DNA of 64,000 nt. Source: Candidatus Altimarinota bacterium (GTDB lineage Bacteria > Patescibacteriota > Gracilibacteria > CAIRYL01). The position numbers and the translations under genes were made by a program. The stretch is taken from positions 800,001 through 864,000 of the forward strand of contig OZ252287.1 of assembly GCA_965250085.1 (NCBI GenBank). Direction: 5' to 3'. The notes under the pieces are model-generated. The model was given only the letters and a program-made list of their open reading frames with translations, had not been told where the DNA came from and did no database searches. Of the stretch, positions 46,932 to 62,749 are shown piece by piece (positions within the stretch are counted from its first letter, which is position 1; each line of letters begins with the position of its first letter).

Positions 46932-47585
46932 CTATGAAGACTCCTCGAGAATTCTGGATGCAAGCTCTGGATCTTGGTCTAAAAGAAGGGAAAGTGCTAA
47001 CTTGTTTCCTTCTATGGGCAATTTGAAAATAAGATTTTTTCTTAATTCTACTATTACGGATGTGATGCTTTCACTTTCTTCCACTGATCCACAAACTTTG
47101 CCGCCAAGAACCTTCTCTATGTCATCGACTTCATCAGGAAGTGTAATATCTGCTCTTACATAAAATATCTGCTCATTCGTTCCTCCTGGTGAAACATAAT
47201 TTTTTTCACCAGTATTTATTTCTCGCACTTGAGTAATCCATTCTCTTTGTATTGGAGTCTCCTCGCACAACTCATCTTTTGCCATCTCTAAGAGAGTTTT
47301 TTCTGGTTTCTCTAACGATCCAGCAGGAAATCCAAGGAACTCTTCTGCGGCACCAGAACGGTATTCATTTCCTAAAATGGTATAGATTTTTCCTCTGTGC
47401 TCGATAACAGGGATTATTATAACGCTATCTTGGCGAAGGAATAATAGTCGATCTCGTCCATTCGGAGCTTGCGTTACTACCACTTGCATGAGTAAATTAT
47501 CTCCTACTTTTACTTCCCTCAAGACTGTCGTAGGAAGTTTTTCTCCTTCTTTTCTTTGATACCATTCAGAGATTGCTTTCCTCAT
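46932..47585 (-). CDS. NUDIX hydrolase (ADP-ribose pyrophosphatase-like)
   Basis: EYR..FPAGSLE....AKDELCEET, YVSPGGTNE. Confidence 0.8.
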   Translation of the reverse strand: MRKAISEWYQRKEGEKLPTTVLREVKVGDNLLMQVVVTQAPNGRDRLLFLRQDSVIIIPVIEHRGKIYTILGNEYRSGAAEEFLGFPAGSLEKPEKTLLEMAKDELCEETPIQREWITQVREINTGEKNYVSPGGTNEQIFYVRADITLPDEVDDIEKVLGGKVCGSVEESESITSVIVELRKNLIFKLPIEGNKLALSLLLDQDPELASRILEESS

Positions 47586-48075: not shown

Positions 48076-50022
48076 TTGGCTACTCAAATTTCTACAAAAA
48101 TTCGGCTCCTTTCTCACTCCGCGCTTGCAAAGCGGTTGCTTGCGTTTTTGCAGGAAAAAGAGATATTTCATCTGAGTGCTCAAAGTCAAACTCGTGAAAC
48201 CGCAATACATAAAGGAACTCACACTTGGGGAGAAATTGAGTCTGCACTTCGGTTTCTTGCTCCATATGAAGAAAAAAAAGGAGGCATTACTCGCATATTT
48301 GTAGGGAGCAAAGTACTTTCTTCTGAAAAAGAAATTCTTTCTTTGCAGAAAAAATTTCCACTCAAAAAGGTTTTGATGGAGATTCAAAAAGCAGAACATT
48401 CAAAAAACAAACAATCATCGCTTCTTCTGAAGCAAGAAGAACAGGGGATATTTTGGGATGAATGGAAAGACGTTTCTCTTTCTGCTGCTTTCAAAAGCAA
48501 AGAGTACTCTGTTATGTTTTGCAAATTCCAACGAATCGCTGAAGAATCATTGCACGATGGTCTTTCTTCACTTCCTCGGTTGAGTCACCTTGAAATATTG
48601 GGAACTACAAAACTTTCTGTTTTGGGAATGATTATTTTTCATCACGAAGAAAAAAAACTGCTCCATGAGTTTTTGAGTGCTCACGATGGAAGCGAAGTGC
48701 AATTGGAAACGAATGGATCTTCTCCTCAAAAAGTATTTGCTCGTATTCAAAAAGAAAAACTATCCGCTGAAAAAAGCTTAGCTCAAGTAGAACAATCTAT
48801 CATAAAACTATCAGAGCATACTGATGATCTCAAGCTTCTTTCTGATTATTATCTCTGGGAAAAACAAAAAGAGAATATGTTGCAAAATACTGGTGAAGTA
48901 GGAACATCTGTGCTGAGTTTGGAAGGATGGATTCCTCAAGATGCGATTGATGATTTCGAAAAAGAATTAAATAAAAAATTTCCTGAGACACACTTGGAAA
49001 AAATTGAGCCAGAAAAAGGCGAAGTGGCTCCAGTGGAACTGAAAAATAAAAGTGTCTTCAAGCCGTTCGAGATTATTACACGTTTATTTGGACTTCCATC
49101 TCCAACTGAACTGGATCCTACCCCATACCTCACTCCGTTTTTTATTATATTTTTTGCATTTTGTCTTACTGATGCCGGGTATGGCATTTTAATAACCATT
49201 ATGACTTTTCTTGTATTGAAATTTTTTAAAATGGAAAGTGGTACTCGAGAAATGTTTCGCCTTTTATTTGTAGGAGGAATAGCAACAATCGTTATGGGCG
49301 CTATTTTTGGTGGATGGTTCGGTATTCCTGTAGAAAACCTGCCTCCATTTTTACAAAAACTTCAAATATTTGACCCCATCGACGATTTGGTTTCCAAGGT
49401 AGGTCCTCTTGCTCTGGGACTTGGAGTGTTACAACTCTGGTTTGGAGTATTGCTCTCTGGCATTACGAAGGTAAAAAATGGACACATTTCTGAGGCATGG
49501 CAAACATCATTTCCCCTTGCTCTTCTGGTGCTTGCATCAATTGCATGGCCAGTGGTAGGTTCACTGGGCTTTGTGGAAGCGGCAAAAATATTAAAATATG
49601 TCTTTCTTGGTCTTCTTCTCTTTATGGTATGGGGATTTGGATATGGAACAAAAAACATTTTGGTGAGACCCATAATGGGGGTTTTTGGAATTTTGAATGA
49701 AGTAATGGGATGGCTTTCAAATGTGCTCTCTTATTCCAGGCTGTTTGCTCTGGGACTTGCCACAGGAATCATTGCTCAGGTATTTAATGAAGTTGCCTTT
49801 ACTATTGGTGGCATTCTTCCTGTCGGGCTCAATGTCATTATGATCGTGTTTATTATTTTGTTTGGACACACCCTCAATATAGGGCTCAATACTTTGGGAT
49901 CATTTATTCATTCTGGTCGTTTGCAGTTTGTGGAATTTTTTGGAAAATTTATGGAAGGAGGAGGAAGCCAGTTTCGCCCCTTCAAAAAAGAACGCCAATA
50001 TTTATTCTTAGAGTCCAGCTAA
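48076..50022 (+). CDS. ntpI: A/V-type ATPase subunit I (a)
   Basis: LEGWIP, ELDPTP, DAGYG, LSYSRLFALGLA, HSGRLQFVEFF. Confidence 0.95.
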   Translation: MATQISTKIRLLSHSALAKRLLAFLQEKEIFHLSAQSQTRETAIHKGTHTWGEIESALRFLAPYEEKKGGITRIFVGSKVLSSEKEILSLQKKFPLKKVLMEIQKAEHSKNKQSSLLLKQEEQGIFWDEWKDVSLSAAFKSKEYSVMFCKFQRIAEESLHDGLSSLPRLSHLEILGTTKLSVLGMIIFHHEEKKLLHEFLSAHDGSEVQLETNGSSPQKVFARIQKEKLSAEKSLAQVEQSIIKLSEHTDDLKLLSDYYLWEKQKENMLQNTGEVGTSVLSLEGWIPQDAIDDFEKELNKKFPETHLEKIEPEKGEVAPVELKNKSVFKPFEIITRLFGLPSPTELDPTPYLTPFFIIFFAFCLTDAGYGILITIMTFLVLKFFKMESGTREMFRLLFVGGIATIVMGAIFGGWFGIPVENLPPFLQKLQIFDPIDDLVSKVGPLALGLGVLQLWFGVLLSGITKVKNGHISEAWQTSFPLALLVLASIAWPVVGSLGFVEAAKILKYVFLGLLLFMVWGFGYGTKNILVRPIMGVFGILNEVMGWLSNVLSYSRLFALGLATGIIAQVFNEVAFTIGGILPVGLNVIMIVFIILFGHTLNIGLNTLGSFIHSGRLQFVEFFGKFMEGGGSQFRPFKKERQYLFLESS

Positions 50023-50127
50023 GAACTTTGAGTGCTGAACTCTGAATATTATTACTTTCCTGATATTTAGAATTTAGAACTTAAAAAACTCATAACTTCC
50101 TTTTTCTATTCTTTTATTTTACTTTCT

Positions 50128-50622
50128 ATGGAAGAAACTATGGTTAATTTCGGGCCAGCACTGGCCATTATGGGCGCTGCGCTTGCTGCTGCTCTTGGGG
50201 GCATCGGTTCATGTTTTGGAGTCGGAGCTGTAGGACAAGCAGCTTCTGGCGTCACTGCTGAAAAACCCGAAGCTTTCGGAAAACTCCTCGTCCTTGGAGC
50301 TCTCCCTGGGTCACAGGGAATTTATGGTCTTGTTGGTGCCTTCTTGGTGCTCAACTTTTTTCCCAATATTGCAGAAATGGATATTGCAACTGGATGGAAA
50401 GTATTTGGTGCATGTCTTCCATTGGCCCTCACTGCTCTCTTCTCTGGAATTTTTCAGGGAAAAGTTGCTGCTGCTGGGACAAATATTATTGCTAAAAATC
50501 CAGCAGAAGGAGGAAAGGCTATTATTCTTGCAGCCATCGTAGAAACATTTGCGATCTTGGGTCTTCTGGCAACTTTCTTGCTTCTTAACAATGTGCGAGA
50601 GGCTATCGAGGTTGCTGCTTAG
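50128..50622 (+). CDS. ntpK: A/V-type ATPase subunit K (c)
   Basis: Four TM; LPGSQGIYG, SGIFQG, VETFA. Confidence 0.95.
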   Translation: MEETMVNFGPALAIMGAALAAALGGIGSCFGVGAVGQAASGVTAEKPEAFGKLLVLGALPGSQGIYGLVGAFLVLNFFPNIAEMDIATGWKVFGACLPLALTALFSGIFQGKVAAAGTNIIAKNPAEGGKAIILAAIVETFAILGLLATFLLLNNVREAIEVAA

Positions 50623-50672
50623 TTTTTTGAAGACTTTCATTTTTTTTATTTCATATTTTTAAGCTCTTTTTC

Positions 50673-51233
50673 ATGGCTCTCACTGACATCCTGCAAAAAA
50701 TTATCGAAGATGCAGAAGCTTCTGTTCAGGAATCTCTGAAAGATGCAAAAGCAAAGACAAAAGAAATTTCCAAAAAACATGATGTTCTTACTGCAGAAAT
50801 TACTGCAGAAATGCAAGCAGAGACACTTCGAAAAAAAGCTTCTATGGAGCAAAAAATTGACGCTCATTTGAATATGGAGTCTAAATCTGAAGAAGCTTTG
50901 TTGAAAACAAAAATATTGAAAGAAGTACAAAAAAAGGCGTTGCAGGAGCTCGTGGCCCTCTCTCCAGAGGAGCATCAAAAGATCCTTACGCATCTTTTGA
51001 TGTCAGTTTCTGAGGCAGGAACGGTGCATCCGGCGAAAGGCCAACGCTCTACTTTAGAAAGGGCAATGCAAAGCTCAGGTGTGTCTTATTCACTTGGGGA
51101 AGAAGCAGATATTTCTGGTGGATTTCTTTTTGTGGGAGACACTGTTGACGTCGATGGAAGTTATGAAACTCTTCTCATGAAAGAAGTATTGCCCAAAATA
51201 GAAACTGAGCTTTCAAAAATTCTTTTTCATTAA
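50673..51233 (+). CDS. ntpE: A/V-type ATPase subunit E
   Basis: MALTDILQKI coiled coil, ISGGF, operon position. Confidence 0.85.
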   Translation: MALTDILQKIIEDAEASVQESLKDAKAKTKEISKKHDVLTAEITAEMQAETLRKKASMEQKIDAHLNMESKSEEALLKTKILKEVQKKALQELVALSPEEHQKILTHLLMSVSEAGTVHPAKGQRSTLERAMQSSGVSYSLGEEADISGGFLFVGDTVDVDGSYETLLMKEVLPKIETELSKILFH

Positions 51234-51238
51234 TCTAT

Positions 51239-52225
51239 TTGACTGCACATAATTACTTAGCGGCTATTGGCAGTGTTCGTGTCTTTGAAACAAAGCTCTT
51301 TTCGGAAGCGGAAAAAGAGAAGATGCTGGGCGCCTCTTCTTTTGGAGAAGCTTTTGGAATGCTCAATGATTTAGATTTTGCTCCTTTTTTAAATGAAGCG
51401 GAGAAAACAGAAGACTTTGAAAGTGTATTACAAAGTGGTCTCCACTCAGCAAAACAAGAGCTCCAGAGACTTGCTCCTCATTCAAAAGAAATGGATGTCT
51501 TATGGCTGCAATATGACTTACACAACGCAAAAGTTCTTCTCAAATCCGATTTCCTAAAAGAAAATATTGAAGATTTTGATGAACTCTTGCTTCCATATGG
51601 CTCACAAAGCCCCGCAAAGATGAAATCACTCCATAGGGGTGAGACTTCGGAGGAAAAAGATACTTGGATTCGAATGGCGTTCGCAAAAGCTCTGCAAATA
51701 TATAAATCGTCTCAAAGCCCTCTTGAAGCTGAGCATGTATTGGATGTTGCATTTTTTGAAGCAGCATCACGTATTGCTCAGAAACAAAAAAATCGTTTCG
51801 TACTTGATTTTGTAACATCATGTATTGATCGGCAGAATATTTTGATTGCATTCCGCTTTTTGTTACGAGATAAAAGCGCAGAAAGTGTTCCATTTCTTCC
51901 TGGAGGCACCATTTCTCAACATGCTTTGAGTGATGACATGGAGCATTTTGGCACCCATCTTCCATTTGTTTGGAAAGAAGCAGTGCTTGCAGGAAAGCAG
52001 GACTTTGAAAAGACAGGAAATCTAGCGATACTGGAAAACAAACTTTCAGAGGTCATCATGGATCTTTTGGGGGTTGCTAAAGTTGTTATTGATGGTCCAG
52101 AGCCGCTGATTGCATTTTTTTGGAAAAAGCATCACAACTCTCAAATCTTACGCACATTACTTGTTGGCAAACGAGCTGGTATATCTGAAGAAAATATTCG
52201 ACATATTTTGCCAAAAGTATATTAG
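51239..52225 (+). CDS. ntpC: A/V-type ATPase subunit C
   Basis: VRVFETKL, YDLHNAKVLLK, IDRQN, GPEPLIAF. Confidence 0.9.
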   Translation: MTAHNYLAAIGSVRVFETKLFSEAEKEKMLGASSFGEAFGMLNDLDFAPFLNEAEKTEDFESVLQSGLHSAKQELQRLAPHSKEMDVLWLQYDLHNAKVLLKSDFLKENIEDFDELLLPYGSQSPAKMKSLHRGETSEEKDTWIRMAFAKALQIYKSSQSPLEAEHVLDVAFFEAASRIAQKQKNRFVLDFVTSCIDRQNILIAFRFLLRDKSAESVPFLPGGTISQHALSDDMEHFGTHLPFVWKEAVLAGKQDFEKTGNLAILENKLSEVIMDLLGVAKVVIDGPEPLIAFFWKKHHNSQILRTLLVGKRAGISEENIRHILPKVY

Positions 52226-52229
52226 GAAA

Positions 52230-52372
52230 AAATGTCCAATTTCTAATAACTAATTTCTAATCAAGTATCAATGACTAATGACCAAATCAGAAAACATAAA
52301 TTCTTAAGCATTTTGACATTTGTCATTATTTAGAAATTAGAGCAATTAGGCATTAGAAATTCATAACTCACT
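52230..52372. repeat. 7-bp-periodic inverted-arm repeat
   Basis: AATTTCT/AATAACT/AATGACT units on the left and TTAGAAA/TTAGAGC/TTAGGCA units on the right. Confidence 0.6.
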
Positions 52373-52408
52373 TTTATTCATAACTGACAACCCCACTAAA
52401 TTATCACT

Positions 52409-52750
52409 ATGAAATACCGCATTGCTATTGTCGGCCAAAAAGAGGAAATTCTCGGATTCAAAGGTCTTGGGCTAGAAGTACATGATGCGGAAACTCAGCA
52501 GGAAGTGGAAGATATTCTTTTTGATCTCAAAAAAATAACGAATTCTGAAGGTGCTTCTCGTAAATACGCTATTATTTATGTTTTAGAATCATTTATTGAA
52601 AACATGGAAAAAGAAAAATATGAGCGTCTCTCTGAAGGAGCGCTTCCGGCTATTATTCCTATTCCTGGGCACATGGGGTCCAGTGGATTTGGAGAAACAA
52701 AAATTCGACGAATTGTAGAAAAAGCTATTGGATCAGATATATTTGCCTGA
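52409..52750 (+). CDS. ntpF: A/V-type ATPase subunit F
   Basis: IAIVG..ILGFKGLG, PAIIPIP, IVEKAIGSDI. Confidence 0.92.
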   Translation: MKYRIAIVGQKEEILGFKGLGLEVHDAETQQEVEDILFDLKKITNSEGASRKYAIIYVLESFIENMEKEKYERLSEGALPAIIPIPGHMGSSGFGETKIRRIVEKAIGSDIFA

Positions 52751-52754
52751 TGAG

Positions 52755-52856
52755 CTCTTAGCACTTGGCTATTAGCCTTTAGAAAAAATTTCATTCTTGT
52801 TTCAAACTTTACTTATAACATCGCTAATTGCTAAAGACTAATCGCTAACTGCTACT
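52755..52856. repeat. 7-bp-periodic inverted-arm repeat
   Basis: TTAG every 7 nt on the left and CTAA every 7 nt on the right. Confidence 0.6.
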
Positions 52857-52900
52857 ACCAAAATTACTTTCTCACTTTATAAACTTTCTAACTTCTTCAT

Positions 52901-54667
52901 ATGACAGAACAAACAGGAACCATCATTAAAGTCTCCGGACCACTTGTGGTCGCAAGCGGTATGACCGGAGCAAAGATGTACGAAGTCGTACGGGTTTCTG
53001 AAGAGAAGCTTATGGGCGAAATTATTGAACTTTCCGGAGATGAGGCATCTATTCAGGTATACGAAGATACTACTGGTATCGGACCTGGGGAAAGCGTGCA
53101 TAGGACAGGAGAGACGATGTCAGTAGAACTGGCTCCTGGACTTTTGGAAAGCATCTACGATGGTGTCCAGCGTCCTCTTGATGCTATTGAAGAAGCGTCT
53201 GGATCTGCATTTATTGCTCGCGGTATTGATGTGCCAGGAGTAAGTCGAAAAAAAACATGGGAGTTTATCCCCGTTGCTGAAAAGGGATCAAAAGTCCAAG
53301 CAGGTGATGTTTTGGGAACAGTGCAGGAAACCACTTTGATTGAGCACAAAATAATGGTTCCTCCAGGAATGTCTGGAACGCTCTCTGCTCTCGAGAGTGG
53401 AAAAAAGAAGGTAGAAGAAGTGGTTGCTGTTATTGAGGATGCTCATGGGAAAAAACACAATATCACTATGCTCCAAAAATGGCCTATTAGAGTCCCAAGG
53501 CCTGTGCGAGGGAAAAAAGTACCGACTATTCCTCTTGTAACTGGTGGCCGATCTATCGATACATTTTTCCCAATGGTAAAAGGTGGTGCTGGATGTATTC
53601 CGGGTCCATTTGGAGCTGGAAAGACAGTAACACAGCAAGCTCTTGCAAAATTTTGTGACGCCGAAGTCATTGTCTATATTGGATGTGGAGAGCGTGGAAA
53701 TGAAATGACAGAAGTACTGACCGAATTTCCTCATCTGGAAGATCCCAACACAGGAGAGCCTCTCATGAAGCGAACTATTTTGATTGCCAATACTTCCAAT
53801 ATGCCAGTTGCTGCTCGTGAGGCGAGTATTTATACTGGAATTACTATTGCTGAATACTATCGCGATATGGGCTACTCAGTAGCACTCATGGCCGATTCGA
53901 CCAGTCGCTGGGCTGAAGCGATGCGTGAAATGTCTGGACGTCTGGAGGAAATGCCAGGAGAAGAAGGATACCCTGCTTATCTTGGTTCGAGAACTGCTCA
54001 GTTTTATGAACGCGCAGGATACGTAGATTGCCTCGGGTCAGACAATCGTGAAGGTGCTCTCACTGTAGTAGGAGCTGTTTCTCCTCCTGGAGGAGACCTT
54101 TCAGAACCCGTAACCCAAAATACACTTCGCGTGACCAAAACTTTCTGGGGTCTGGATTCTGCACTTGCCTATAAGCGTCACTTCCCAGCTATCAACTGGC
54201 TCACATCATATTCTCTCTATGTAGATAATATTGAAGACTATTGGAGAAAAAACATAGCAGAAGACTATCCAGATGTTCGAAGGAAGGCCCTGGGGGTACT
54301 CCAAGAAGAGGCTAAGCTCGAAGAGATTGTAAAGCTTGTGGGAATGGAATCGCTCTCGAGTAAGGAAAAGCTTACTCTCTTGGTAGCAAAGTCACTCAGA
54401 GAAGACTTTCTTTTTCAAAACGCATTTGATCGTGAAGATGCCTATACTCCACCAAAAAAACAATATGGTATTCTCAAGTCTATTATGACACTCTCCGAAT
54501 CTGGTATGGAGGTGGTAGAACAAGAAGATTTTGATTTTAGAGATCTGCAGGCTCTTCCAGTGATTGAGAAGCTCGCCAGTGCAAAAGATATTTCTGCCGA
54601 TGAGCTTGAAAAACTTGATGCTCTGCAAAAAGAAGTAGAAACTTCTGTTTTGGGCCTCAGAAAATAA
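52901..54667 (+). CDS. ntpA: A/V-type ATPase catalytic subunit A
   Basis: [40 protein letters not shown]. Confidence 0.98.
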
Positions 54668-54703
54668 TTTTTTCATTTGTATTCATAATTTTTTTTCATA
54701 AAC

Positions 54704-56077
54704 ATGCAAAAACAGTATAAAACCGTTACCGATGTCGCCGGACCGCTCCTAATTGTAGAGCTTCCAAAAGACGCCAGTGTAAAGTACGAAGAGCTGGTAG
54801 AAATCTCTCTCCCGAATGAAAAACGGGTAAGATTGGGAAAGGTCCTTGAGTCATCAGAAGGACGTGCTGTCGTACAGGTATTTGAGTCGACATCTGGCAT
54901 TCCTGTAGAAGGAACCAAGGTGCAGTTTCTCGGAGAATCTCTCAAGATAGGAGTATCTGATCAGATGCTCGGCAGAGTATTTAGTGGAATTGGACGACCT
55001 ATCGATGGAGGAGGAGATATCATTGCTGAGCAAAAAGTAGACATCAATGGGTCATCTATTAATCCAGCATCTCGTGAATTTCCAAATGACTTTATTCAGA
55101 CCGGTATTTCTTCACTTGATGCCATGAACACACTGGTACGTGGACAGAAGCTTCCGATCTTTTCTGGAGCAGGATTGCCTCACAATCGTTTGGCTACGCA
55201 AATCGCACGTCAGGCAAAAGTGCGTGATGGAAGCTCATTTGCCGTAGTGTTTGCTGCCATGGGAGTGACTTTTGAAGAAGCGCAGTATTTTCAAAAAGAA
55301 TTTGAAAAAACTGGTGCACTTGAAAACGCAGTGCTCTTTATCAACACTGCTGCTGACCCGGTAGTAGAACGTATTGCAACTCCTCGTATAGCCCTTTCCA
55401 CAGCTGAATATCTTGCTTTTGAAAAAGGAATGCACGTACTCGTAATTCTCACAGATCTCACCAACTATGCTGAAGCACTTCGTGAGGTATCTGCGGCGCG
55501 TAAAGAAGTCCCCGGTCGACGTGGATATCCAGGATATCTCTATACCGACCTTTCTACTCTCTATGAACGAGCAGGGCGAATCAAAGGAAAAGACGGATCT
55601 GTGACACAAATCCCTATTCTTACCATGCCAGAAGATGACATTACTCATCCTATTCCGGATTTGACGGGATATATCACCGAGGGGCAATTTGTAATCGATC
55701 GAGGATTGGCGAAGTCAGGACTGTTACCTCCTGTTGATGTGCTCAAATCTCTTTCCCGCCTTTGGTCTGCCGGAGTAGGAGAAGGGAAGACTCGTGAGGA
55801 TCATTCTGGAGTCAAAGACCAACTCTTTGCCAGCTATGCTCGTGGAAAAGATGTAAGAGAGTTGGCCGTAGTATTGGGAGAATCTGCACTGGATGAAAGC
55901 GACAAGGCTCATATGAAGTTTGCTGAGCAGTACGAAGAAAAATTCATCAACCAAGGAGAATATGAAGAACGAACCATCGAGGAAACACTCGAACTCGGTT
56001 GGGAACTCCTCAAAATGATCCCCAAGGCAGATATGAAACGGGTGAAGCCAGATATGGTGAAGAAGTATATGAAGTAG
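54704..56077 (+). CDS. ntpB: A/V-type ATPase subunit B
   Basis: [45 protein letters not shown]. Confidence 0.98.
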
Positions 56078-56117: not shown

Positions 56118-56146
56118 GTAGGGACGTGCCACAACACGTCCTTTTT
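56118..56146 (+). terminator. GTAG-type REP hairpin acting as terminator after ntpB
   Basis: GTAG-GGACGTG-CCACAA-CACGTCC-TTTTT. Confidence 0.6.
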
Positions 56147-56223
56147 AGGATTATATTTTTTATGAGAATTTACTTGACAATAAGATTTTTATAAGTTTAA
56201 ATAATCTCCTTTTTAAATATACC

Positions 56224-57084
56224 GTGAGCTGCGAAAATAGGGTATTTACTACAATGGCAAATGTAAATAAATTCATTGTAAAAGAGCTTGGATCACCTGA
56301 GAGATTTAATGGTCATGAAACGGAGCTAATCCATGAATACCAAACCATGTCTCAGAGCTCTGAGTATGAGCTTCTTCTTTCCTCTTCTCAAGAAGCTATA
56401 TCTCAAATGCGATCAGGGGAATGGAGTGAGGTTTCTCTCACAGAATTTGGAGTAACTCTGACCCAAGTATTGAGAACATACTATTACGAACGTCATACTC
56501 AGGAGCAAATGCGCACACTTCAAAAAGAATTTGCTGAGAGGGCTATTGCAGCAAATAAATACTTTTTTGTACTTTGGGAACAACTTGCTAACAAAAAAAG
56601 AGCTCAACGAGAAAAGATACATGCTCTTTCAAAAGAAACTCGTGAAAAACTGGATCAAAATCCATACCTTCTCATAACTCTCAAAGCGGTGGTGGAAGAC
56701 TTAAAAAGTGAAGGTTTTGAGCTTTTAAATCCAGAAATATTAGAAATACCAGTATCACAGGTGCTCACAAAAGGGGTCCATGTTGTTGCTGAAAACACCG
56801 AAGGTGAACAAAGAGAAGTGTGGCTCTATCTTCCTGGAGGAAAGATAAAAACAGCAGTACATGCAGCTCCAGATAAAGACTATGAAATATGTAAAACCCT
56901 CGCAAGAACTTTTGCTGAAAGAGTCGCCGAAATAATCGGAGAAGGAAGTAGAAGCTTGGGAACGCCTTTCACGGTGAGCATTGGACCTGGTAATCCTATA
57001 GGTAAGAGTTTTCAAAGAAATGAAAAGTCTGTTGCAGTGCCTCAAGTGCCCCCAGATCCTTCTCCGTCTTCTTCATCTGTATAA
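56224..57084 (+). CDS. Hypothetical protein: coiled coil plus small alpha/beta C-terminal domain
   Basis: 286 aa; first gene of a tightly spaced four-gene unit; no similarity to ATPase subunit D visible. Confidence 0.7.
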   Translation: MSCENRVFTTMANVNKFIVKELGSPERFNGHETELIHEYQTMSQSSEYELLLSSSQEAISQMRSGEWSEVSLTEFGVTLTQVLRTYYYERHTQEQMRTLQKEFAERAIAANKYFFVLWEQLANKKRAQREKIHALSKETREKLDQNPYLLITLKAVVEDLKSEGFELLNPEILEIPVSQVLTKGVHVVAENTEGEQREVWLYLPGGKIKTAVHAAPDKDYEICKTLARTFAERVAEIIGEGSRSLGTPFTVSIGPGNPIGKSFQRNEKSVAVPQVPPDPSPSSSSV

Positions 57085-57087
57085 ATC

Positions 57088-57690
57088 ATGAAAGAACAAT
57101 TTTTGAATGTAGCGGCATTTGAACCATGCACCAAAGTGCATGGTCCTGGAACAAGATTTGCTCTTTGGCTGCAGGGATGTCCTTTGAGATGTACTGGCTG
57201 CACAAATCCTGAAATGCTTGATGTGGACAAAGAAGCTCAGAGGGTATCACCTCGAGAAGTGAATGTACTCATCAGGAAAGCGATGGAATGTGTGCTTCCT
57301 ATGGAAGGAATTACTGTTATGGGAGGGGAGCCAACATCTCAAGCCGAGGCTCTCTTTCCTGTTTTAAAATATGCACAACAAGCAGGGTTGAACTCGCTTG
57401 TTTTTAGTGGATTTACACTAGGGCAATTGCGGAACAGGAGAGATCCAGCCATAGAAGATCTCTTGGGCCTCACGGACACTCTTATTGATGGTCCGTATAT
57501 TGCAGCTCTTCAAGATCCAGAGCTTATTCGTGGATCAACTAATCAGCAAATTATTCACCTTACAGATGCCTTAGAAAGAAGAGATTTTTCTCGGAGAAAT
57601 GGAGAACATTCTATCCAGATGGGGATAGGTGGTGTGAGTGTCAGTCAAAGCGGATTTTTTCCCGGCGATCTTTCTCCATCTGCCACATGA
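57088..57690 (+). CDS. Radical SAM protein, NrdG-like activase family
   Basis: GPGTR..WLQGCPLRCTGCTNP, GITVMGGEP, FSGF, DTLIDGPY, RGSTNQ. Confidence 0.9.
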   Translation: MKEQFLNVAAFEPCTKVHGPGTRFALWLQGCPLRCTGCTNPEMLDVDKEAQRVSPREVNVLIRKAMECVLPMEGITVMGGEPTSQAEALFPVLKYAQQAGLNSLVFSGFTLGQLRNRRDPAIEDLLGLTDTLIDGPYIAALQDPELIRGSTNQQIIHLTDALERRDFSRRNGEHSIQMGIGGVSVSQSGFFPGDLSPSAT

Positions 57691-60600
57691 ACCAAGCAGA
57701 AGTAACTCGGCGAGATCAGTTTGTACCAGTTGTAATTGACACACTTACTGCGTTTGATCCTGCGCTCTGTATGCATGGCGATCTGGAAGATGGAATTTTT
57801 CATGGAAATGCGAGAAGTGATGTGCGCGATTCTCTTCTCAAAAACATTGTCCGTACAGAAAGTGATGAGGCAAAGAAGTATGACTATGTGCTCGTATATA
57901 ACGCTGCTACAAAGCGTATCGAGTTTGGTGATGAACTTTGTGATTTTGAGGATGTAGATCAATACATGAGAGAGGATTTTATGAAAGAAGAAATAGTTCT
58001 CAGTAATGGAAGTCAAGATGAGGTGGGAGTTATAAATCGTCTTATTGATCCAGATATTGTGTCTCCTAGTATGAGTTCTATTCCTGACAAATCGGTTCTT
58101 CGTATGGTGGAGATGCTTTTGAAAAAAGGAAAAACAATATGCCTGGTGATAGATGAAGCGAATGAATTTATCCCCCAAGAAAACAAACAGGTATCTGCTT
58201 CGGAAAGCGTCCATAACGAGGCTCTGGTAGTTGATTTGGTACGAAAACTCAAACAACATGAAAATGCCCACCTGATATTGCTCGACAGAGCCAACACTGT
58301 GAATGGAAGATTGCAACGTGAAATACCATTCCATGCAATGCCAGCAAGTACTCGAGCAGACGTAGAAGATATTTTGAGAGATCATATTTCACCAGGGAAC
58401 CTTTCCACAGCAATTGCACTCTCAACAAGAACTCGAATTTCTGATTTGGTGAGACTCGTGGATAGAAAAGGAGGAGATGAGGAAGAGCTCTTGGATTCAC
58501 TTATTTCATTTCGTGCTCAGCAAATTGTAAAGATGGGGGGCGGAATACTTGAATCTTCAGTATCAGGTGTCGCCGATAAAGAAATCGCAATACAACTTGA
58601 AGCGAGAGAGTATTGGGAACGACTTGGAGAATCTTTTTTAAAAAATCCAGACCTCATTCCCAATGGAGTGATTATCATAGGACCTCCAGGAACCGGAAAA
58701 AGTATCATTCCCAAATGGATTGCTTCTCGACTCAAGGTTCCGTATATCAAGCTCAAAGAAATAGGTACCGAAGGACTTGCTGGCAGAAAGCTTCAAAAGA
58801 TAAAGCAAGCGCTTGAAACAATACGATCCCAAAGACCATGTGTAGTGCACATAGATGAAATAGATAAAATGTTTCCAAAAAAACAAGACCTTCAAAGCAA
58901 CAATGATGATGAAGCACGAGCGTATTTGCAAGACAGAATTTCCGACGATGAATTTATGAGTGGGGTTATACTCATTGGAACGAGTAATGACCCTGACCAT
59001 ATGGATTTTCCCATGCTCAGAAGTGGTCGATTTGGAGATATGGTAGCCATGATGCCTCCCCAAACGCTGGAGGAGAAAATACTTCATTTTAAGGCAGTAT
59101 GGCATCAGCTTCCCTCTATTGAGAAAAATGAAATACTGCTCCCTGGTGATGAGTTTATTAGAGCTCTTGTGAGCCAAACTCCTGAACATGCTACTGGTGC
59201 AAATTTTAAAGCTTTCCTCCAAGAATGTCTCAGAGAGTTCCTTCAAGATAGTTCTGATTATGCTACCTTCAACGAAGTCCTTATAAGAAAAATCTCTCAT
59301 TTTGAAAATCGATTTCCAAGAGATCCACGATATAAAGATCAGTGTGAAAAAGCTTTGAGAATGCATAACGCATTTTCTTTTCGAGAAAATAGTGAAGATG
59401 ATGAAGTTAGTACAGAAACTTTACAAATGTTAGCACTCGAAGCTGCTCAAACAGGATTAACTGATGGAGCTGAAGAGCTTCAAACCTTACTTCAGAAAAC
59501 AGATAAAGTAAGAACAGATATTCTTACAGGTGCACCAGAGTTAGAAGCACTTATTGCAAAGAAGACCTGTCTTTTGGAAGAACAAGAAGTAGCTGTAGAT
59601 GTTGCCAAAAAAGAAGAAAGTAAGCTCAAAAAAATTGTGAGCAAACTTCAAGGATCGAAAAAACAATTAGAGAAAACTCTCGCAGGCCTTAACGATGAAA
59701 TTGCCAAAAGAGTAGAAGCAGATACCGCAGAAGCAAGATCAGCAATAGAAGAGCAAGTTCGTGAAAGGATTGCTGAAGAGATGGAAAAAGTGGAGTTTGC
59801 TGAAACAGAACTTTCTGCCCTCAGAGATGAAGTCCAGGAAAAAGAGTGTGATGTTCGAGAGCTTATAGCTGACCTGGAAGCGAGATCAAAGCAACTCCAA
59901 AGTGAAGCGCAAAGATTGCAGTCTCTGTTGTCCCAAAGCGCCTATCTAGGAGAAGAACCAGATGGACTTGCAGATATTTTGGACACTATTGAAAGACTAC
60001 TTGCCGACCAAGTCGCAGGTTTGCAGCAAGCGAGAGAGGTTCAAGCATCTCTCAGGAGTGATGAAGAACAAAGAGCAGCAGATTTTTTGCTCCGAGTAGT
60101 AGAAACTGGGCAATACCTTCAGCAATCTTCAGGTGCTATGCGGAAAATATTGGATAAGATTGCCGATATCAATACTGTACGAGATACCAAAGGTAAAAAC
60201 CTTCTTATGATTGCATTGGACAGAGAAAAAAGTGATGATGATAAGCAAATTTTAGAATTTGCAAATGTTCTTTGCGAGAGGGGGCTTGAAGTGGATACCA
60301 AAGACAACAACGGAAGAACAGTTCTGATGTTAGCAGCTCGAAATTTTTTGGAAGTTACAAATTATTTACTGCTTGATCAAAACGCTTCGATAGATGCACA
60401 GGACAAATTAGGGAATACTGCTCTTATGTACGCCTCCTTATCTATGAATGCGGAAACAATTAACTTTTTAAGAAGTCACAATGCTGATATAAATAAGATA
60501 CACACTTCTGGAGACACCGCTCTTATGATATTACTAAAAAGAAAAAACGATAAAAAATTATTAATTTGTATGGACGCCTTTTTTGCATCACATGAAACAA

Positions 60601-61130
60601 TAGATGTTCTTCGCAAAGCTTTAGGTACAAGTGATATAGCCTCCTATTATGATCACATATATCAAGAAGCATCCAAATTTGGCATCAATCTATACAGATA
60701 CTGTAACGAGATTACCAGCAGAAGATCCATAGAAGATCTTTCAAATGCAAAGGAGGATACACTCTTGCAACTTTGGGACAAGAGATTTCATGTGGAAGAA
60801 CTCCCTGTTTTGGATCTGAGTATAAGAGATGGCGACAATGAATCTTGCTTTACCATTGCTCTAAGAAAACTCTCTGGTAGTAAGAAGAATGCTTATGAAT
60901 CGCTATGGCGAAGGACAGTACATGATTTAATAGATCAAGGAGCTCTAGAATTTGTACAAGCTGACCTCAGGCAACTAGTGCAAAATAATGAGTTGACAGT
61001 GATTGAATGTCTAGATAAAGAGATGCCTATTGATAGCGATGTTATACTTTCTATTTCCTCTGATCCCGATCTTGAGGAACACCTGGATGATTCAATGATG
61101 ACCGCATTAGATAATATCACATTAGCATAA
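57687..61130 (+). CDS. AAA+ ATPase with degenerate N-terminal AAA domain, coiled coil and C-terminal ankyrin repeats
   Basis: GPPGTGKS, HIDEIDK, TSN..D.PMLRSGRF; heptad region aa ~600-800; ankyrin motifs GRTVLMLAA, GNTALMYA, GDTALM. Confidence 0.88.
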   Translation: MNQAEVTRRDQFVPVVIDTLTAFDPALCMHGDLEDGIFHGNARSDVRDSLLKNIVRTESDEAKKYDYVLVYNAATKRIEFGDELCDFEDVDQYMREDFMKEEIVLSNGSQDEVGVINRLIDPDIVSPSMSSIPDKSVLRMVEMLLKKGKTICLVIDEANEFIPQENKQVSASESVHNEALVVDLVRKLKQHENAHLILLDRANTVNGRLQREIPFHAMPASTRADVEDILRDHISPGNLSTAIALSTRTRISDLVRLVDRKGGDEEELLDSLISFRAQQIVKMGGGILESSVSGVADKEIAIQLEAREYWERLGESFLKNPDLIPNGVIIIGPPGTGKSIIPKWIASRLKVPYIKLKEIGTEGLAGRKLQKIKQALETIRSQRPCVVHIDEIDKMFPKKQDLQSNNDDEARAYLQDRISDDEFMSGVILIGTSNDPDHMDFPMLRSGRFGDMVAMMPPQTLEEKILHFKAVWHQLPSIEKNEILLPGDEFIRALVSQTPEHATGANFKAFLQECLREFLQDSSDYATFNEVLIRKISHFENRFPRDPRYKDQCEKALRMHNAFSFRENSEDDEVSTETLQMLALEAAQTGLTDGAEELQTLLQKTDKVRTDILTGAPELEALIAKKTCLLEEQEVAVDVAKKEESKLKKIVSKLQGSKKQLEKTLAGLNDEIAKRVEADTAEARSAIEEQVRERIAEEMEKVEFAETELSALRDEVQEKECDVRELIADLEARSKQLQSEAQRLQSLLSQSAYLGEEPDGLADILDTIERLLADQVAGLQQAREVQASLRSDEEQRAADFLLRVVETGQYLQQSSGAMRKILDKIADINTVRDTKGKNLLMIALDREKSDDDKQILEFANVLCERGLEVDTKDNNGRTVLMLAARNFLEVTNYLLLDQNASIDAQDKLGNTALMYASLSMNAETINFLRSHNADINKIHTSGDTALMILLKRKNDKKLLICMDAFFASHETIDVLRKALGTSDIASYYDHIYQEASKFGINLYRYCNEITSRRSIEDLSNAKEDTLLQLWDKRFHVEELPVLDLSIRDGDNESCFTIALRKLSGSKKNAYESLWRRTVHDLIDQGALEFVQADLRQLVQNNELTVIECLDKEMPIDSDVILSISSDPDLEEHLDDSMMTALDNITLA

Positions 61131-61149
61131 AACACTTTTTTAAACTCCC

Positions 61150-61608
61150 ATGACCACTGATACATACACTCCTGAAAGAACTAGAGACTTGCTTGAACCA
61201 GATGTACTTGCAGAAGTAACGAGGCCTCACCTGCCCGTAACAAAAATATCTCATCAGTCTATAATGGCTTTTCTGCAAAGCAAACTGGGAACAGAAGTGA
61301 GAGAATCTATTTCTGAGTTTTCATCTGCGCAACTACGAAAAAGCTCCTCATTTGAACCGGGGATAGAACTCGTTGCTCAAGATTCCACTCCCTTCGGTGA
61401 AATGATATTTTATGATGCCGGCACAACCGATGCTCCAGAATTACCTTTTTACACCCAGGTAATTGATATTCCCAGTGGGGAGGTAAATGCTGCAATAATA
61501 TTTTTGCTGTTGAGAGAAAAATTGGATGAATTTTTAGCATCTTCTCAAAATCCAGATATCGGTGATATTTCTTATCTCGTAAGAAAAGTTCGAGCGTTTT
61601 TGTCTTAA
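61150..61608 (+). CDS. Hypothetical protein
   Basis: 152-aa ORF 19 bp after the AAA gene. Confidence 0.6.
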   Translation: MTTDTYTPERTRDLLEPDVLAEVTRPHLPVTKISHQSIMAFLQSKLGTEVRESISEFSSAQLRKSSSFEPGIELVAQDSTPFGEMIFYDAGTTDAPELPFYTQVIDIPSGEVNAAIIFLLLREKLDEFLASSQNPDIGDISYLVRKVRAFLS

Positions 61609-61732
61609 TTATTTAGTAATTAAAAAAATTCTGTAATCCCAGAAGATTTAGTTAGAATTGATGTTTTTTTGTGTATTTCATTTATTTCTGCCGCATATTT
61701 TGGTATAATGAGGAGAATATAAATATACAAAT

Positions 61733-62749
61733 ATGTCACATAAACATAAAGATTGGACAAGATATGGGATCAAGCCCAAGTATGCGGATAAAAAATATCC
61801 CAAAGTTTTTGATACCATCATCATTGGTGCTGGGCCCGCTGGAATGACCTCTGCAGTGTACGCAGCACGGCGAAAAATGAAGATTTTGCTTATCTGCGGA
61901 GACAAGATAGGAGGACAAATGCAATGGTCATCTGATATTGAGAATTATACTGGAGTAAAAAAAATAACCGGTCCAGGACTTACGGATCGATTTTTTCATC
62001 ATGTGCATCATATAGAAAAAGATATAGAAAATTTTGATCTCTGGGTTCGAAAAAAGGAGCTCGTGACAGGTGTAAAGAAAAATTCAGACAATACTTTCAC
62101 CGTTACTACTTCTGCTGGAAAATCATTTGAGACAAAAACGCTCATTATCACAGCGGGAAAAGTGCCACGAACACTTGGAATTTCTGGAGAAGAAGTTGCC
62201 ATGCAGGGGAATGGACTTTCTTTTTGTGCCACATGTGATGCCCCACTGTATAAGGACAAAAAAATGGCAATCATTGGAGGGGGCAATTCTGCTATGGATG
62301 TCGCATTGCAACTCAATACTCTGACAGATGACATTACACTTTTTACAGATATCGGTCACTTAACGGGAGAGGAAGTTCTTGAAGAAAAACTGCTCAATAA
62401 TTCACATATAGATATAAAATATAATGTTGATGTCAAAGAGATATTGCTGGATGAAAAATATCAAGTGCGTGGTCTCCGATATTCTGAAAAAGGATCGAAA
62501 GAAAAAGAATTTGTGTGCGAAGGTATCTTTGAGGAGATCGGACAATTGCCTGCTACAAATTTTCTCAGCGAATTTATTGAGCTCAACAAAAAAGGAGAAA
62601 TTCCTATTGATAAAAAGTGTAAAACCTCTCTCTCAGGCGTATTTGCCGCAGGAGATGTCACCGATGAAATTCATAAGCAGATTGTCGTTGCAGCTGGACA
62701 AGGAGCCATCGCTGCGCTGGAGGCCCATGAGTATGTGTTGAAGTTGTAA
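61733..62749 (+). CDS. trxB: Thioredoxin reductase-like FAD-dependent disulfide oxidoreductase
   Basis: IIGAGPAG, IENY, SFCATCD, GGGNSA, FAAGDVT, KQIVVAAGQG. Confidence 0.9.
   Translation: MSHKHKDWTRYGIKPKYADKKYPKVFDTIIIGAGPAGMTSAVYAARRKMKILLICGDKIGGQMQWSSDIENYTGVKKITGPGLTDRFFHHVHHIEKDIENFDLWVRKKELVTGVKKNSDNTFTVTTSAGKSFETKTLIITAGKVPRTLGISGEEVAMQGNGLSFCATCDAPLYKDKKMAIIGGGNSAMDVALQLNTLTDDITLFTDIGHLTGEEVLEEKLLNNSHIDIKYNVDVKEILLDEKYQVRGLRYSEKGSKEKEFVCEGIFEEIGQLPATNFLSEFIELNKKGEIPIDKKCKTSLSGVFAAGDVTDEIHKQIVVAAGQGAIAALEAHEYVLKL

Follow-up and report, generated by a model that had tools for sequence, protein, structure and literature searches.

Textbooks present glycyl-radical activases as the partners of a small number of metabolic enzymes, which raises the question of what such a protein does when it is encoded in quite different company. 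The case considered here lies in a 64,000-nucleotide stretch of DNA from a Candidatus Altimarinota bacterium (the window), where the gene for a radical SAM protein (rSAM) is placed between the genes for a protein of a novel family (p286) and a large AAA+ protein, with a small ORF (p152) at the end of the row (Table 1). All four ORFs are intact and are joined by a 3-bp gap, an ATGA overlap and a 19-bp gap, confirming the layout and tight coupling described in the original prediction. The GTG start of p286 is supported by its homologues, all of which begin with MS (alignment A3).

Table 1. Coordinates of the genes, protein regions and putative signals in the window
Feature	Position	Strand	Description
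Terminator-like hairpin and U-run after ntpB	56121..56146	+	Divides the module from the V-ATPase operon
Promoter-like site	56174..56202	+	TTGACA, 17-nt spacer, TTAAAT; 22 bp upstream of the p286 start
p286	56224..57084	+	286 aa, GTG start; novel family
rSAM	57088..57690	+	200 aa; glycyl-radical-enzyme-activase-like (PflA/NrdG-type) radical SAM protein
AAA protein	57687..61130	+	1147 aa
Degenerate D1-like AAA domain without Walker A	57687..58586	+	Residues 1-300
Active classical AAA module	58644..59366	+	Residues ~320-560; Pfam AAA 5.7e-26
Charged helical stalk, putative coiled coil	59397..60116	+	Residues ~571-810
Ankyrin repeats	60135..60536	+	Residues 817-950; Ank_2 4.9e-13, Ank 3.6e-11
Acidic C-terminal region	60537..61130	+	Residues 951-1147; pI 4.47; no Pfam match
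p152	61150..61608	+	152 aa; acidic orphan ORF

The module is flanked by V-ATPase genes and a thioredoxin-reductase-like gene. The hairpin after ntpB (stem GGACGUG/CACGUCC, 6-nt loop, UUUUU) has a folding energy of -14.1 kcal/mol with a z of -3.0 against shuffles, and is absent from the list of a consensus terminator/promoter scan. The candidate promoter, which was read by inspection of the sequence, was missed by the consensus scan because its -10 element has no A at position 2. It had been proposed that the genes form an island inserted in the position expected for ntpD. Indeed, ntpD does not follow ntpB here and is located ~112 kb away in the same genome, but it is likewise not the next gene after ntpB in any of the four relatives inspected, and flanking repeats were not found around the module. 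No mobile-element hallmarks were found at the module either, and a search of phage and plasmid collections with p286 returned no match. The locus 3' of ntpB is different in every relative inspected.

The rSAM is the sole Fer4_12 gene of the genome, matching the family at 3e-27 with 96 bits against a cut-off of 22. It contains the motifs GPGxR (residues 19-23), CxxxCxGC (C31xxxC35xxC38) and GGEP (residues 79-82), of which the three cysteines and G79-G80-E81 do not vary among 23 sequences. Among solved structures, the nearest relative is PFL-AE (3c8f), which matches the rSAM family profile at E 1.5e-18 and in which the GPGxR motif contacts the peptide substrate. The protein thus shares its fold family and its CxxxCxGC, GPGxR and GGE motifs with PflA and NrdG, but it scores below the equivalog cut-offs of both (88.1 bits against 126.1 for the NrdG model TIGR02491) and no glycyl-radical enzyme was found in its genome. 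Neither NrdD (PF13597) nor Gly_radical (PF01228) was found in the single-contig genome of 1,368,807 bp, which is 97.14% complete, while positive controls for the NrdD search matched in six genomes; the absence of a partner noted for the neighborhood therefore holds genome-wide. In a quick IQ-TREE tree with SH-aLRT support, a 9-row clade including two NrdGs adjacent to NrdD genes (L111 and L114; Pfam NRDD 1e-128 and 1e-107, respectively) is split from 102 rows including the window rSAM with 98% support. NrdD-linked NrdGs therefore form a clade apart, and one half of the case that had been named against the prediction, a protein clustering with true NrdG and serving an nrdD elsewhere, is not borne out. 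A 79-row fvmX clade (98% support) also excludes the window protein. The rSAM is a PflA/NrdG-type activase relative without a glycyl-radical enzyme partner in its genome, and its clade comprises 452 relatives in species-representative genomes.

The adjoining gene on the upstream side encodes p286, which matches no Pfam, NCBIfam, PADLOC or PHROG family and whose own family amounts to 26 representatives, itself included, among 1.84 billion. In the AF2 model (pLDDT 88.4), the N-terminal part is helical, including a long helix at residues 93-144, and is followed by a C-terminal alpha/beta domain (residues 147-244), the last beta-hairpin and helix of which are DUF2997-like. Residues A55, L72, G76, F114, G164, G184 and C223 are near-invariant (alignment A3). 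The DUF2997-type C-terminus that had been suspected received moderate support: residues 194-239 align with 11 planctomycete DUF2997 sequences at an hhalign probability of 57.6% (P 1e-4) with the conserved cysteine in register, but the Pfam DUF2997 model (PF11211) does not match p286, not even in a genome search run at E 10, and touches only one of the 26 family members (E 0.078). Against DUF1257 (PF06868), the hhalign probability is 1.5% and the top alignment only pairs the N-terminal 'MS...LG' motifs. Inspection of p286 by eye revealed no RVxG[YFW] motif of the glycyl-radical-enzyme type, and neither p286 nor p152 resembles fvmX3-analog, X5, X6 or X7 (hhalign probability 2.7% or lower).

The AAA+ protein carries two AAA-like domains, one of which lacks a Walker A motif. 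A single P-loop (GPPGTGKS, residues 332-339) is present in all five family members and none is found in the N-terminal domain; the Pfam AAA match spans residues 328-451. The P-loop, D390/E391, N434 and R445/R448 are invariant in the five sequences (alignment A4), and we take them to be Walker A, Walker B, the sensor-1 asparagine and the arginines of the second region of homology, respectively. In the AF2 model of residues 1-600 (pLDDT 76), residues 1-300 comprise an alpha/beta core and, C-terminal to it, a helical lid, and the model aligns over ~515-670 columns to tandem AAA proteins such as Rix7, p97/Cdc48 and NVL (E 2e-18); residues 1-300 therefore represent an AAA-like fold without Walker A. 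The P-loop, Pfam and AF2 evidence agree with the predicted pair of one Walker-A-less and one intact AAA domain, and with the ankyrin repeats. The ~200-aa coiled coil of the same prediction is retained as putative: the stalk is composed of 63% E/K/R/Q/A/L, the long helix of the model begins at residue 575, and matches to SMC/ASRP are weak. Helical stalks of different lengths occur in the homologues too, whereas the C-termini beyond the stalk differ in all five. Ankyrin repeats are absent from the homologues P0109, P0110, L092 and L094, and Ank_2 matches nothing else in the window's genome. The active module aligns with FtsH of the FtsH ternary systems at an hhalign probability of 98.9%, and the protein aligns with Ycf46-like AAA at 97.3% over 368 columns (residues 122-518), reaching into the N-domain; the N-domain alone gives non-significant values of 0.9% and 0.6% against Ycf46-like AAA and ternary-system FtsH, respectively.

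Are these genes conserved together? The order p286-rSAM-AAA recurs in the metagenome loci L092 and L094, and L093 has p286 and rSAM before the locus ends, so that p286 is syntenic with rSAM in all three metagenome loci whose rSAM belongs to the window's clade. The lengths of the longest contigs coincide for P0231 and P0002 (8535), P0256 and P0003 (61530), and P0236 and P0109 (8965), which hints at three further linked loci. Of 401 genomes sampled from the phylum, only the one that carries the window matched p286 clearly, with one marginal match at E 7.7e-4, and no close rSAM homologue was found in 40 relatives. The trio of p286, rSAM and tandem AAA protein with putative coiled coil is a co-conserved, sporadic and self-contained module. 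Given its sporadic occurrence, and since no relative inspected has the same locus after ntpB, the module is likely an accessory, acquired one. The fourth gene had been expected to be conserved as well, and here the expectation failed. p152 is small and acidic as described (pI 4.56), but it has no family in Pfam, NCBIfam, PADLOC or PHROG and no homologue among 5.8 billion clusters, and tblastn did not find it in L092-L094. Like the ankyrin tip, it was found in the window's version only; its membership of the module is uncertain, and it is possibly a lineage-specific fourth gene.

Beyond the trio, rSAM genes are repeatedly linked to AAA genes. Counted with three home-made AAA profiles, which give a lower bound, the linkage is 3/3 for p286-type loci, 8/10 for DUF2997-type loci (the two misses being contigs of at most 2.1 kb) and at least 38/59 for fvmX-type loci. 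These profiles found no AAA gene in 52 of 101 rSAM loci, including 10 'other' loci of ~16.5 kb; in the sister clade L095-L097, Pfam additionally places AAA genes beside rSAM. DUF2997 adjoins rSAM in 8 of 32 metagenome loci as well as in L140 and L141, and lies upstream of it, in the same position as p286. Some clusters of Ycf46-like AAA, DUF1257 and DUF2997 also carry an rSAM of this clade, and Ycf46-like AAA and DUF2997 were seen together with rSAM in L140, L141, L099, L098, L101, L104 and L107, bearing out the suggested co-occurrence of Ycf46-like AAA modules with NrdG-like proteins; our literature search returned no paper that ties these three families to an rSAM. Their rSAM, beside DUF2997, is of the same broad clade as that of the window, the AAA architecture is probably common to both, and the C-terminus of p286 resembles their DUF2997 at profile level. 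In contrast, their gene order is different, the window AAA protein has a 550-aa extension, and a single 286-aa p286 that misses both Pfam models stands in place of their separate small DUF1257 and DUF2997 proteins. The rSAM genes of distant relatives have extra neighbor genes that are missing from the window.

The same rSAM clade is also found in planctomycete and myxobacterial FtsH ternary systems, which were predicted to act in conflicts, with the rSAM modifying the product of a separate gene (Kaur, Burroughs, Iyer and Aravind, eLife 2020, PMC7159879). The rSAM-bearing 'simple' type has an rSAM of the same family (40-45% identity) and a classical AAA partner whose N-terminal domain is inactive and whose C-terminal domain is active. 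Unlike these systems, the window proteins have no fvmX domain or Peptidase_M41, and no MoxR-type or vWA family was found by Pfam in any of the four, so the ternary core pair is absent there; p286 and the AAA protein with its stalk and ankyrin repeats take the place of the ternary-system parts. PADLOC 2.0 gave no whole-system match, only generic AAA (IetA), ankyrin (PDC-M72A) and weak pVip (0.0048) matches. The likeness to IetA of the IetAS anti-phage system is a weak one of the AAA core (PADLOC 1.4e-11, 42 bits; NCBIfam 33 bits against a cut-off of 510) and extends to the generic AAA module only, with no IetS protease partner. For the proposed conflict reading, the shared rSAM clade speaks in favor and the missing system match does not. 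By analogy, a conflict role is plausible, and we infer that its form could be an anti-phage or host-interaction function. Overall, the module is a variant of a kind known computationally, with p286 as its novel family.

As to what rSAM acts on and by which chemistry, what the AAA+ motor does and what the module is for, we favor a model, at somewhat less than an even chance, in which rSAM would modify another protein, with p286 the leading candidate, and this partner would be remodeled or targeted by the AAA+ motor. The rSAM would be a relative of glycyl-radical-enzyme activases that has lost its classical partner. It would hold a 4Fe-4S cluster at C31/C35/C38, cleave SAM to give a 5'-deoxyadenosyl radical and, as PflA and NrdG do, take a hydrogen from a protein rather than a small molecule. 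The product of the immediately upstream gene, p286, is the most likely candidate substrate, and the site may be the DUF2997-like C-terminal module with the near-invariant C223 and G184, or the hairpin with G76. The predicted AAA+ ring, its D1-like tier inactive and its D2 tier active, would use ATP to unfold, load or remodel the partner or a client, and the helical stalk with its exchangeable C-terminal head (here ankyrin repeats) may select the client or the site of action. The output would most likely be a conflict or stress response and not core metabolism, in analogy to the rSAM-bearing FtsH ternary systems.

Other roles of the module were weighed against this model. It may serve housekeeping or stress proteostasis like Ycf46, Ycf35 (DUF1257) and DUF2997, in the upkeep or regulation of a redox or Fe-S-linked complex and with no conflict involved. 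The window AAA protein does align best, and deepest into the N-domain, with Ycf46-like AAA; in two planctomycete genomes the AAA protein ends in a fused DUF1257, and the module sits between V-ATPase and thioredoxin-reductase-like genes. Cyanobacterial DUF2997 and DUF1257 are described in conserved clusters with a ferredoxin, fed7 (PMC4284462), which points the same way. We nevertheless consider such a role unlikely, since it predicts vertical conservation, yet p286 is clear only in its own genome among the 401 sampled and a close rSAM homologue occurs in none of the 40 relatives; the C-terminal heads vary in all five AAA homologues, and the related L099 cluster abuts an AbiEii-type AAA_21/AAA_15 ATPase.

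Alternatively, rSAM could act on a nucleotide or RNA, yielding a modified nucleotide or an altered RNA end, with the AAA+ protein as sensor or regulator and p286 as adaptor. QueE and viperins are small radical SAM enzymes of related folds that act on nucleotides, and the window rSAM matches both weakly; an RtcA-like RNA 3'-phosphate cyclase (PF01137, 3.5e-71) is encoded directly upstream of rSAM in 30 of 80 genome loci. However, PflA and NrdG are matched more strongly than QueE and viperins by orders of magnitude, GPGxR is retained and the window module has no RtcA gene, making this activity quite improbable in our judgment. The genes could also be what is left of an acquired element that is decaying and no longer functions, as the sporadic occurrence of the module, the orphan p152 and the missing rSAM-side genes of distant relatives would suggest, but four intact, tightly coupled frames and intact catalytic motifs (the cysteine triad, Walker A and B, and the arginines) make decay very unlikely. 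The reading of rSAM as an ordinary NrdG for an anaerobic ribonucleotide reductase encoded elsewhere is almost certainly wrong. It accords with the automatic annotation of many family members as 'anaerobic ribonucleoside-triphosphate reductase activating protein' and with a match to PHROG 626 (3.7e-24), but the sub-cut-off score, the separate clade and the absence of NrdD and Gly_radical refute it, save for the case that the ~3% of the genome missing from the assembly encodes an NrdD.

Modification of p286 by rSAM remains our preferred reading. A broader and more speculative idea, which we think unlikely, is that an entire lineage of relatives of glycyl-radical-enzyme activases was recruited onto small DUF2997-type domains in place of metabolic glycyl-radical enzymes; on these domains rSAM would place a radical or a radical-derived modification, and a dedicated AAA+ unfoldase would load, reset or deploy them. 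A single biochemical principle would then underlie the CPR-type trio, the FtsH ternary systems of planctomycetes and myxobacteria, and the cyanobacterial and plastid Ycf46/Ycf35/DUF2997 genes.

The finding reveals a large clade of glycyl-radical-enzyme activases without a glycyl-radical enzyme partner that is repeatedly linked to AAA+ motors and small uncharacterized proteins. Of the forms found, that in the window is the most compact, consisting of three genes with just one partner protein, and is therefore a handy minimal system for reconstitution. If rSAM does modify p286 or DUF2997-type proteins, this would represent a new radical-based pathway of protein modification, provide the first biochemical handle on the Ycf46/Ycf35/DUF2997 genes, and offer a testable mechanism for an effector arm of the FtsH ternary systems with their predicted conflict role.

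The four co-directional ORFs lie downstream of the V-type ATPase genes ntpI-K-E-C-F-A-B, and their GC content (0.38–0.43) is similar to that of the flanks. The first two are 3 bp apart, the second and third overlap at ATGA, and the last two are 19 bp apart. A hairpin with a U-run separates the ntpB stop codon from p286, and downstream of it, before p286, the hexamers TTGACA and TTAAAT were read from the sequence with a 17-nt spacer between them. On the strength of these two features the module probably has its own promoter. In a consensus promoter/terminator scan the number of sites was not above that in shuffled sequences, and neither this hairpin nor the promoter-like site was listed. Beyond the module, an extended −10-like element (TGGTATAAT) lies ~25 bp upstream of a thioredoxin-reductase-like gene, which suggests that this gene is transcribed on its own. 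Before the ATPase operon lies a 217-aa ORF with a putative Nudix box (GFPAGSLE...EETP), recognised by eye.

Coordinates of features in the window and in the compared genomes, and gene orders at three further loci
Feature	Position	Strand	Basis or gene order
217-aa ORF, putative Nudix box	46932-47585	-	
V-type ATPase operon, without ntpD	48076-56077		ntpI,K,E,C,F,A,B
Hairpin + U-run between ntpB stop and p286	56121-56146		fold -14.1 kcal/mol, z -3.0
p286	56224-57084	+	table-11 ORF listing
rSAM, 200 aa	57088-57690	+	table-11 ORF listing
AAA protein, 1147 aa	57687-61130	+	table-11 ORF listing
p152	61150-61608	+	table-11 ORF listing
Extended -10-like element	61690-61713		
Thioredoxin-reductase-like gene	61733-62749		
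ntpD of the same genome	G000:C1:968215-968784		
585-aa protein after ntpB in a relative (G003)	L166:1571-3328		
845-aa AAA_21/AAA_15 ATPase	L099:10933-13470		
AAA-DUF1257 fusion (G066)	L142:189-1985		
RtcA-like cyclase, example	L033:2271-3317		
Locus L140			AAA (526 aa), SF1-helicase-like protein, 565 aa, 691 aa, DUF2997, DUF1257, rSAM
Locus L141			AAA, 621 aa, 253 aa, DUF2997, rSAM
Locus L099			Ycf46-like AAA, 536 aa, 264 aa, DUF2997, rSAM, then AbiEii-type AAA_21/AAA_15 ATPase

The radical SAM protein (rSAM) matched Pfam Fer4_12 (3e-27), with Radical_SAM slightly below its cut-off. No equivalog level was reached among the NCBIfam models, of which NrdG came top (88.1 bits against a cut-off of 126.1), ahead of PflA (68.2 bits against 231.75). 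With a profile of 23 family members the closest solved protein was the PFL-activating enzyme (E 1.5e-18), and C31, C35, C38, GPGxR and GGEP are invariant in the family alignment. The genome is a single contig of 1,368,807 bp (97.14% complete) in which no NrdD or Gly_radical domain was found and rSAM is the sole Fer4_12 gene. In a quick IQ-TREE phylogeny of 111 rows, a branch with 98% support separates a 9-row clade from the remaining 102 rows, the window rSAM among them; that clade holds loci L111 and L114, where the genes upstream encode true NrdD (Pfam 1e-128 and 1e-107). The lack of NrdD in the genome and the separation from this clade therefore argue against a true NrdG with its nrdD elsewhere, a reading to which we attach almost no credence; the outcome originally named as refuting the proposal, grouping with true NrdG as the partner of a distant nrdD, is thus not seen. 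In the same tree the rSAMs linked to p286 group together (84% support), and their sisters, at loci L095-L097, also neighbour AAA proteins. A distinct clade of 79 rows (98% support) comprises the rSAMs linked to fvmX domains, which belong to the FtsH ternary systems discussed below. In another genome of the class (G030), rSAM-like matches contain two to three in-frame TGA codons; these matches may be pseudogenes, or some members of the class may use an alternative genetic code. The window reads well with table 11.

The AAA protein has one P-loop, GPPGTGKS at residues 332–339, and D390/E391, N434 and R445/R448 are invariant in all five homologues. Residues 1–300 have no Walker A motif and are modelled by AF2 (pLDDT 76) as an alpha/beta core with a helical lid. 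The 600-residue model matches the tandem AAA proteins Rix7, p97/Cdc48 and NVL over ~515–670 columns (E about 2e-18). Next in the protein come a charged helical stalk (~571–810; 63% E/K/R/Q/A/L, with weak SMC-like matches), ankyrin repeats (817–950, Ank_2 4.9e-13) and an acidic tail comprising the C-terminal ~200 residues, which matches no family. Ank_2 was matched nowhere else in the genome, and the idea that the repeats mark an ankyrin-rich intracellular symbiont was therefore dropped.

Its upstream partner p286 could be assigned to no family of Pfam, NCBIfam, PADLOC or PHROGs, and an exhaustive phmmer search of 1.84 billion representatives delimited a family of 26 proteins including itself (244–349 aa). 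All members start with MS, and A55, L72, G76, F114, G164, G184 and C223 are nearly invariant in their alignment. In the AF2 model built from that alignment (pLDDT 88.4) the N-terminal part is helical and includes one long helix (93–144), and the C-terminal domain (147–244) is alpha/beta. Foldseek found no PDB match at E 0.001 or better, and the wide VIA search returned nothing specific (best Z 7.3, generic alpha+beta domains). The C-terminus had been likened to DUF2997. In a single planned hhalign comparison, residues 194–239 (a beta-hairpin, the conserved Cys and a helix) aligned with 11 DUF2997 sequences at 57.6% probability (P 1e-4), whereas the Pfam DUF2997 model did not match p286 and touched one of the 26 family members (E 0.078); the likeness thus stands between profiles and not at the level of the Pfam model. 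The hhalign comparison of p286 with DUF1257 was not significant. The fourth protein, p152, a possible member of the module, is acidic (pI 4.56) and matched no family; a search of 5.8 billion clusters yielded no homologue of it. Neither it nor p286 had an ESM Atlas match reaching 0.9.

Co-conservation of the genes was judged from 32 metagenome loci, retrieved with the closest rSAM sequences as seeds. Loci L092 (rSAM 48% identical) and L094 (43%) retain the order p286 homologue, rSAM, AAA homologue, and a 2-kb contig (L093) carries p286 then rSAM before it ends. The AAA homologues of L092 and L094 (889 and 729 aa) have in common with the window protein the first ~580–700 residues and the helical stalk, and no ankyrin repeats were found in them. 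When 5.8 billion clusters were searched by word index, the only further full-length relatives were P0109 (865 aa, 46%) and P0110 (1527 aa, 42%), each with its own C-terminal region. Three times, the longest contigs of p286-family and of rSAM or AAA proteins are equal in size (8535, 61530 and 8965 bp), a coincidence of lengths that hints at three further linked loci and is no proof of them. The conserved unit is thus the trio of p286, rSAM and AAA protein, to which the fourth gene and the ankyrin head are lineage-specific additions. Of the four-gene operon first proposed, the co-conservation of the trio is upheld, whereas p152 and the ankyrin extension fall outside it.

Close to home the module is rare. 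No close rSAM homologue was found in 40 relatives (best non-self matches 29–39% identical and of partial length), and in a sample of 401 genomes from the phylum, spanning >140 families (relatives' genomes 0.6–2.0 Mb), p286 was found only in its own genome, plus a marginal match (E 7.7e-4). The L092 proteins carry the label 'Candidatus Gracilibacteria', which, with the small size of all the relatives' genomes and the number of families sampled, suggests a CPR-type host. In viral contigs, an alignment search with rSAM found one weak relative (29% identity). An insertion in place of ntpD, as originally suggested, is not what the comparison shows: ntpD, which lies ~112 kb from the operon, is not directly after ntpB in any of the four relatives inspected, only short chance-like repeat matches flank the module, and p286 had no tblastn match in phage and plasmid collections. 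The gene or genes after ntpB differ in all three relatives with listed ORFs, so the post-ntpB locus looks variable; the module reads as an accessory module in this locus rather than a recent displacement of ntpD. In one of the three (L166) ntpB is directly followed by the gene for a protein of 585 aa, perhaps akin to OLD/AAA_15-type ATPases, which has 'GGNNSGKSRLLRS' as its P-loop. NtpB itself is 79–81% identical to that of a sister family and 68% to that of one genus of its own family, and four other genera of the family gave matches of only 26–30%, which look like F-type subunits; the V-ATPase thus seems patchy in the lineage and perhaps transferred.

The original statement that Ycf46-like AAA proteins co-occur with NrdG-like proteins proved correct, as seen in the clusters at L140, L141 and L099. 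Of 81 planctomycete genomes, 11 have DUF2997 matches, at 16 sites in all; seven of these sites have an AAA gene, and two an rSAM homologue, within 1.5 kb. DUF2997 adjoins rSAM in 8 of the 32 metagenome loci, L099 among them, and in six of those DUF1257 is present as well. In two genomes DUF1257 is fused to the AAA C-terminus (L142 and, in G075, L144; frames of 655–660 aa) and DUF2997 comes next, which supports a physical link between these families. The 253-aa (L141) and 264-aa (L099) proteins showed no significant hhalign similarity to p286, DUF1257 or DUF2997. At L099, the DUF2997-rSAM-Ycf46-like cluster is followed by an ATPase of a type typical of defence neighbourhoods. Three home-made AAA profiles detected an AAA gene at 49 of 101 non-NrdG rSAM loci, many of them short: 3/3 of p286 type, 8/10 with DUF2997, 38/59 with fvmX and 0/29 others, in three of which Pfam detects AAA genes. 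The link is strong but not universal.

Among 452 rSAM relatives in species-representative genomes, the best 80 are mostly from Planctomycetota and Myxococcota. Clustering of neighbouring ORFs revealed a recurrent array: RtcA-like cyclase, rSAM, ~360 aa, ~190 aa, AAA+M41 FtsH (~735 aa), ~90 aa and ~1100 aa. Pfam identified fvmX6, fvmX5, AAA+Peptidase_M41, fvmX3-analog and fvmX7, the domains of the FtsH ternary systems, predicted conflict systems whose rSAM arm is a published prediction and whose FtsH component has two AAA domains, the N-terminal one inactive (Kaur et al. 2020, PMC7159879). The rSAM family and the logic are common to these systems and the window. However, the window AAA protein resembles the ternary-system FtsH only in the live AAA module, and hhalign found no similarity of p286 or p152 to fvmX3-analog, X5, X6 or X7; the window is therefore, as judged from its sequence, not an FtsH ternary system. 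An RtcA-like cyclase (PF01137, 3.5e-71) is directly upstream of rSAM in 30 of 80 FtsH-ternary-type loci (L012-L091, planctomycete and myxobacterial), which may point to an RNA-end link for these systems. The main text of PMC7159879 mentions neither RtcA, phosphate cyclase, Ycf46 nor DUF2997.

Four points are established here: the rSAM is of GRE-activase type and intact, although no GRE accompanies it; the tandem AAA+ protein is likewise intact and has a single live ring; the upstream partner, p286, is conserved and has an apparently DUF2997-like C-terminus; and the rSAM clade is recurrently linked to AAA+ and DUF2997 genes. That the module is a decaying remnant is accordingly very improbable in our judgement. 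A housekeeping role of the Ycf46 type, which we consider unlikely, would fit the hhalign match between the window AAA family and Ycf46-like AAAs (97.3%, 368 columns, reaching 200 residues into the N-domain); the N-domain alone gave no significant match. The RtcA linkage hints that rSAM might act on RNA or a nucleotide, which we regard as improbable.

We tentatively favour protein modification coupled to an unfoldase, short of confidence in it. The rSAM would abstract hydrogen from a protein, most likely p286, where C223, G184 and the hairpin bearing G76 are candidate sites; the AAA+ protein would unfold, load or deploy p286 or a client, and the stalk and exchangeable head (ankyrin repeats in the window) would set specificity. 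In the literature searched, no paper with both 'Ycf46' and 'radical SAM' was found, nor anything relevant on orphan GRE activases with AAA+; a passage on DUF2997 deals with a ferredoxin gene cluster and not with an rSAM (PMC4284462). The family of p286, the architecture of the trio and the wider pattern of a GRE-activase clade with AAA+ and a DUF2997-type partner appear undescribed. A role specifically in defence is rather doubtful; because the module occurs sporadically, carries variable heads and is akin to predicted conflict systems, it would more likely serve conflict or stress than core metabolism.
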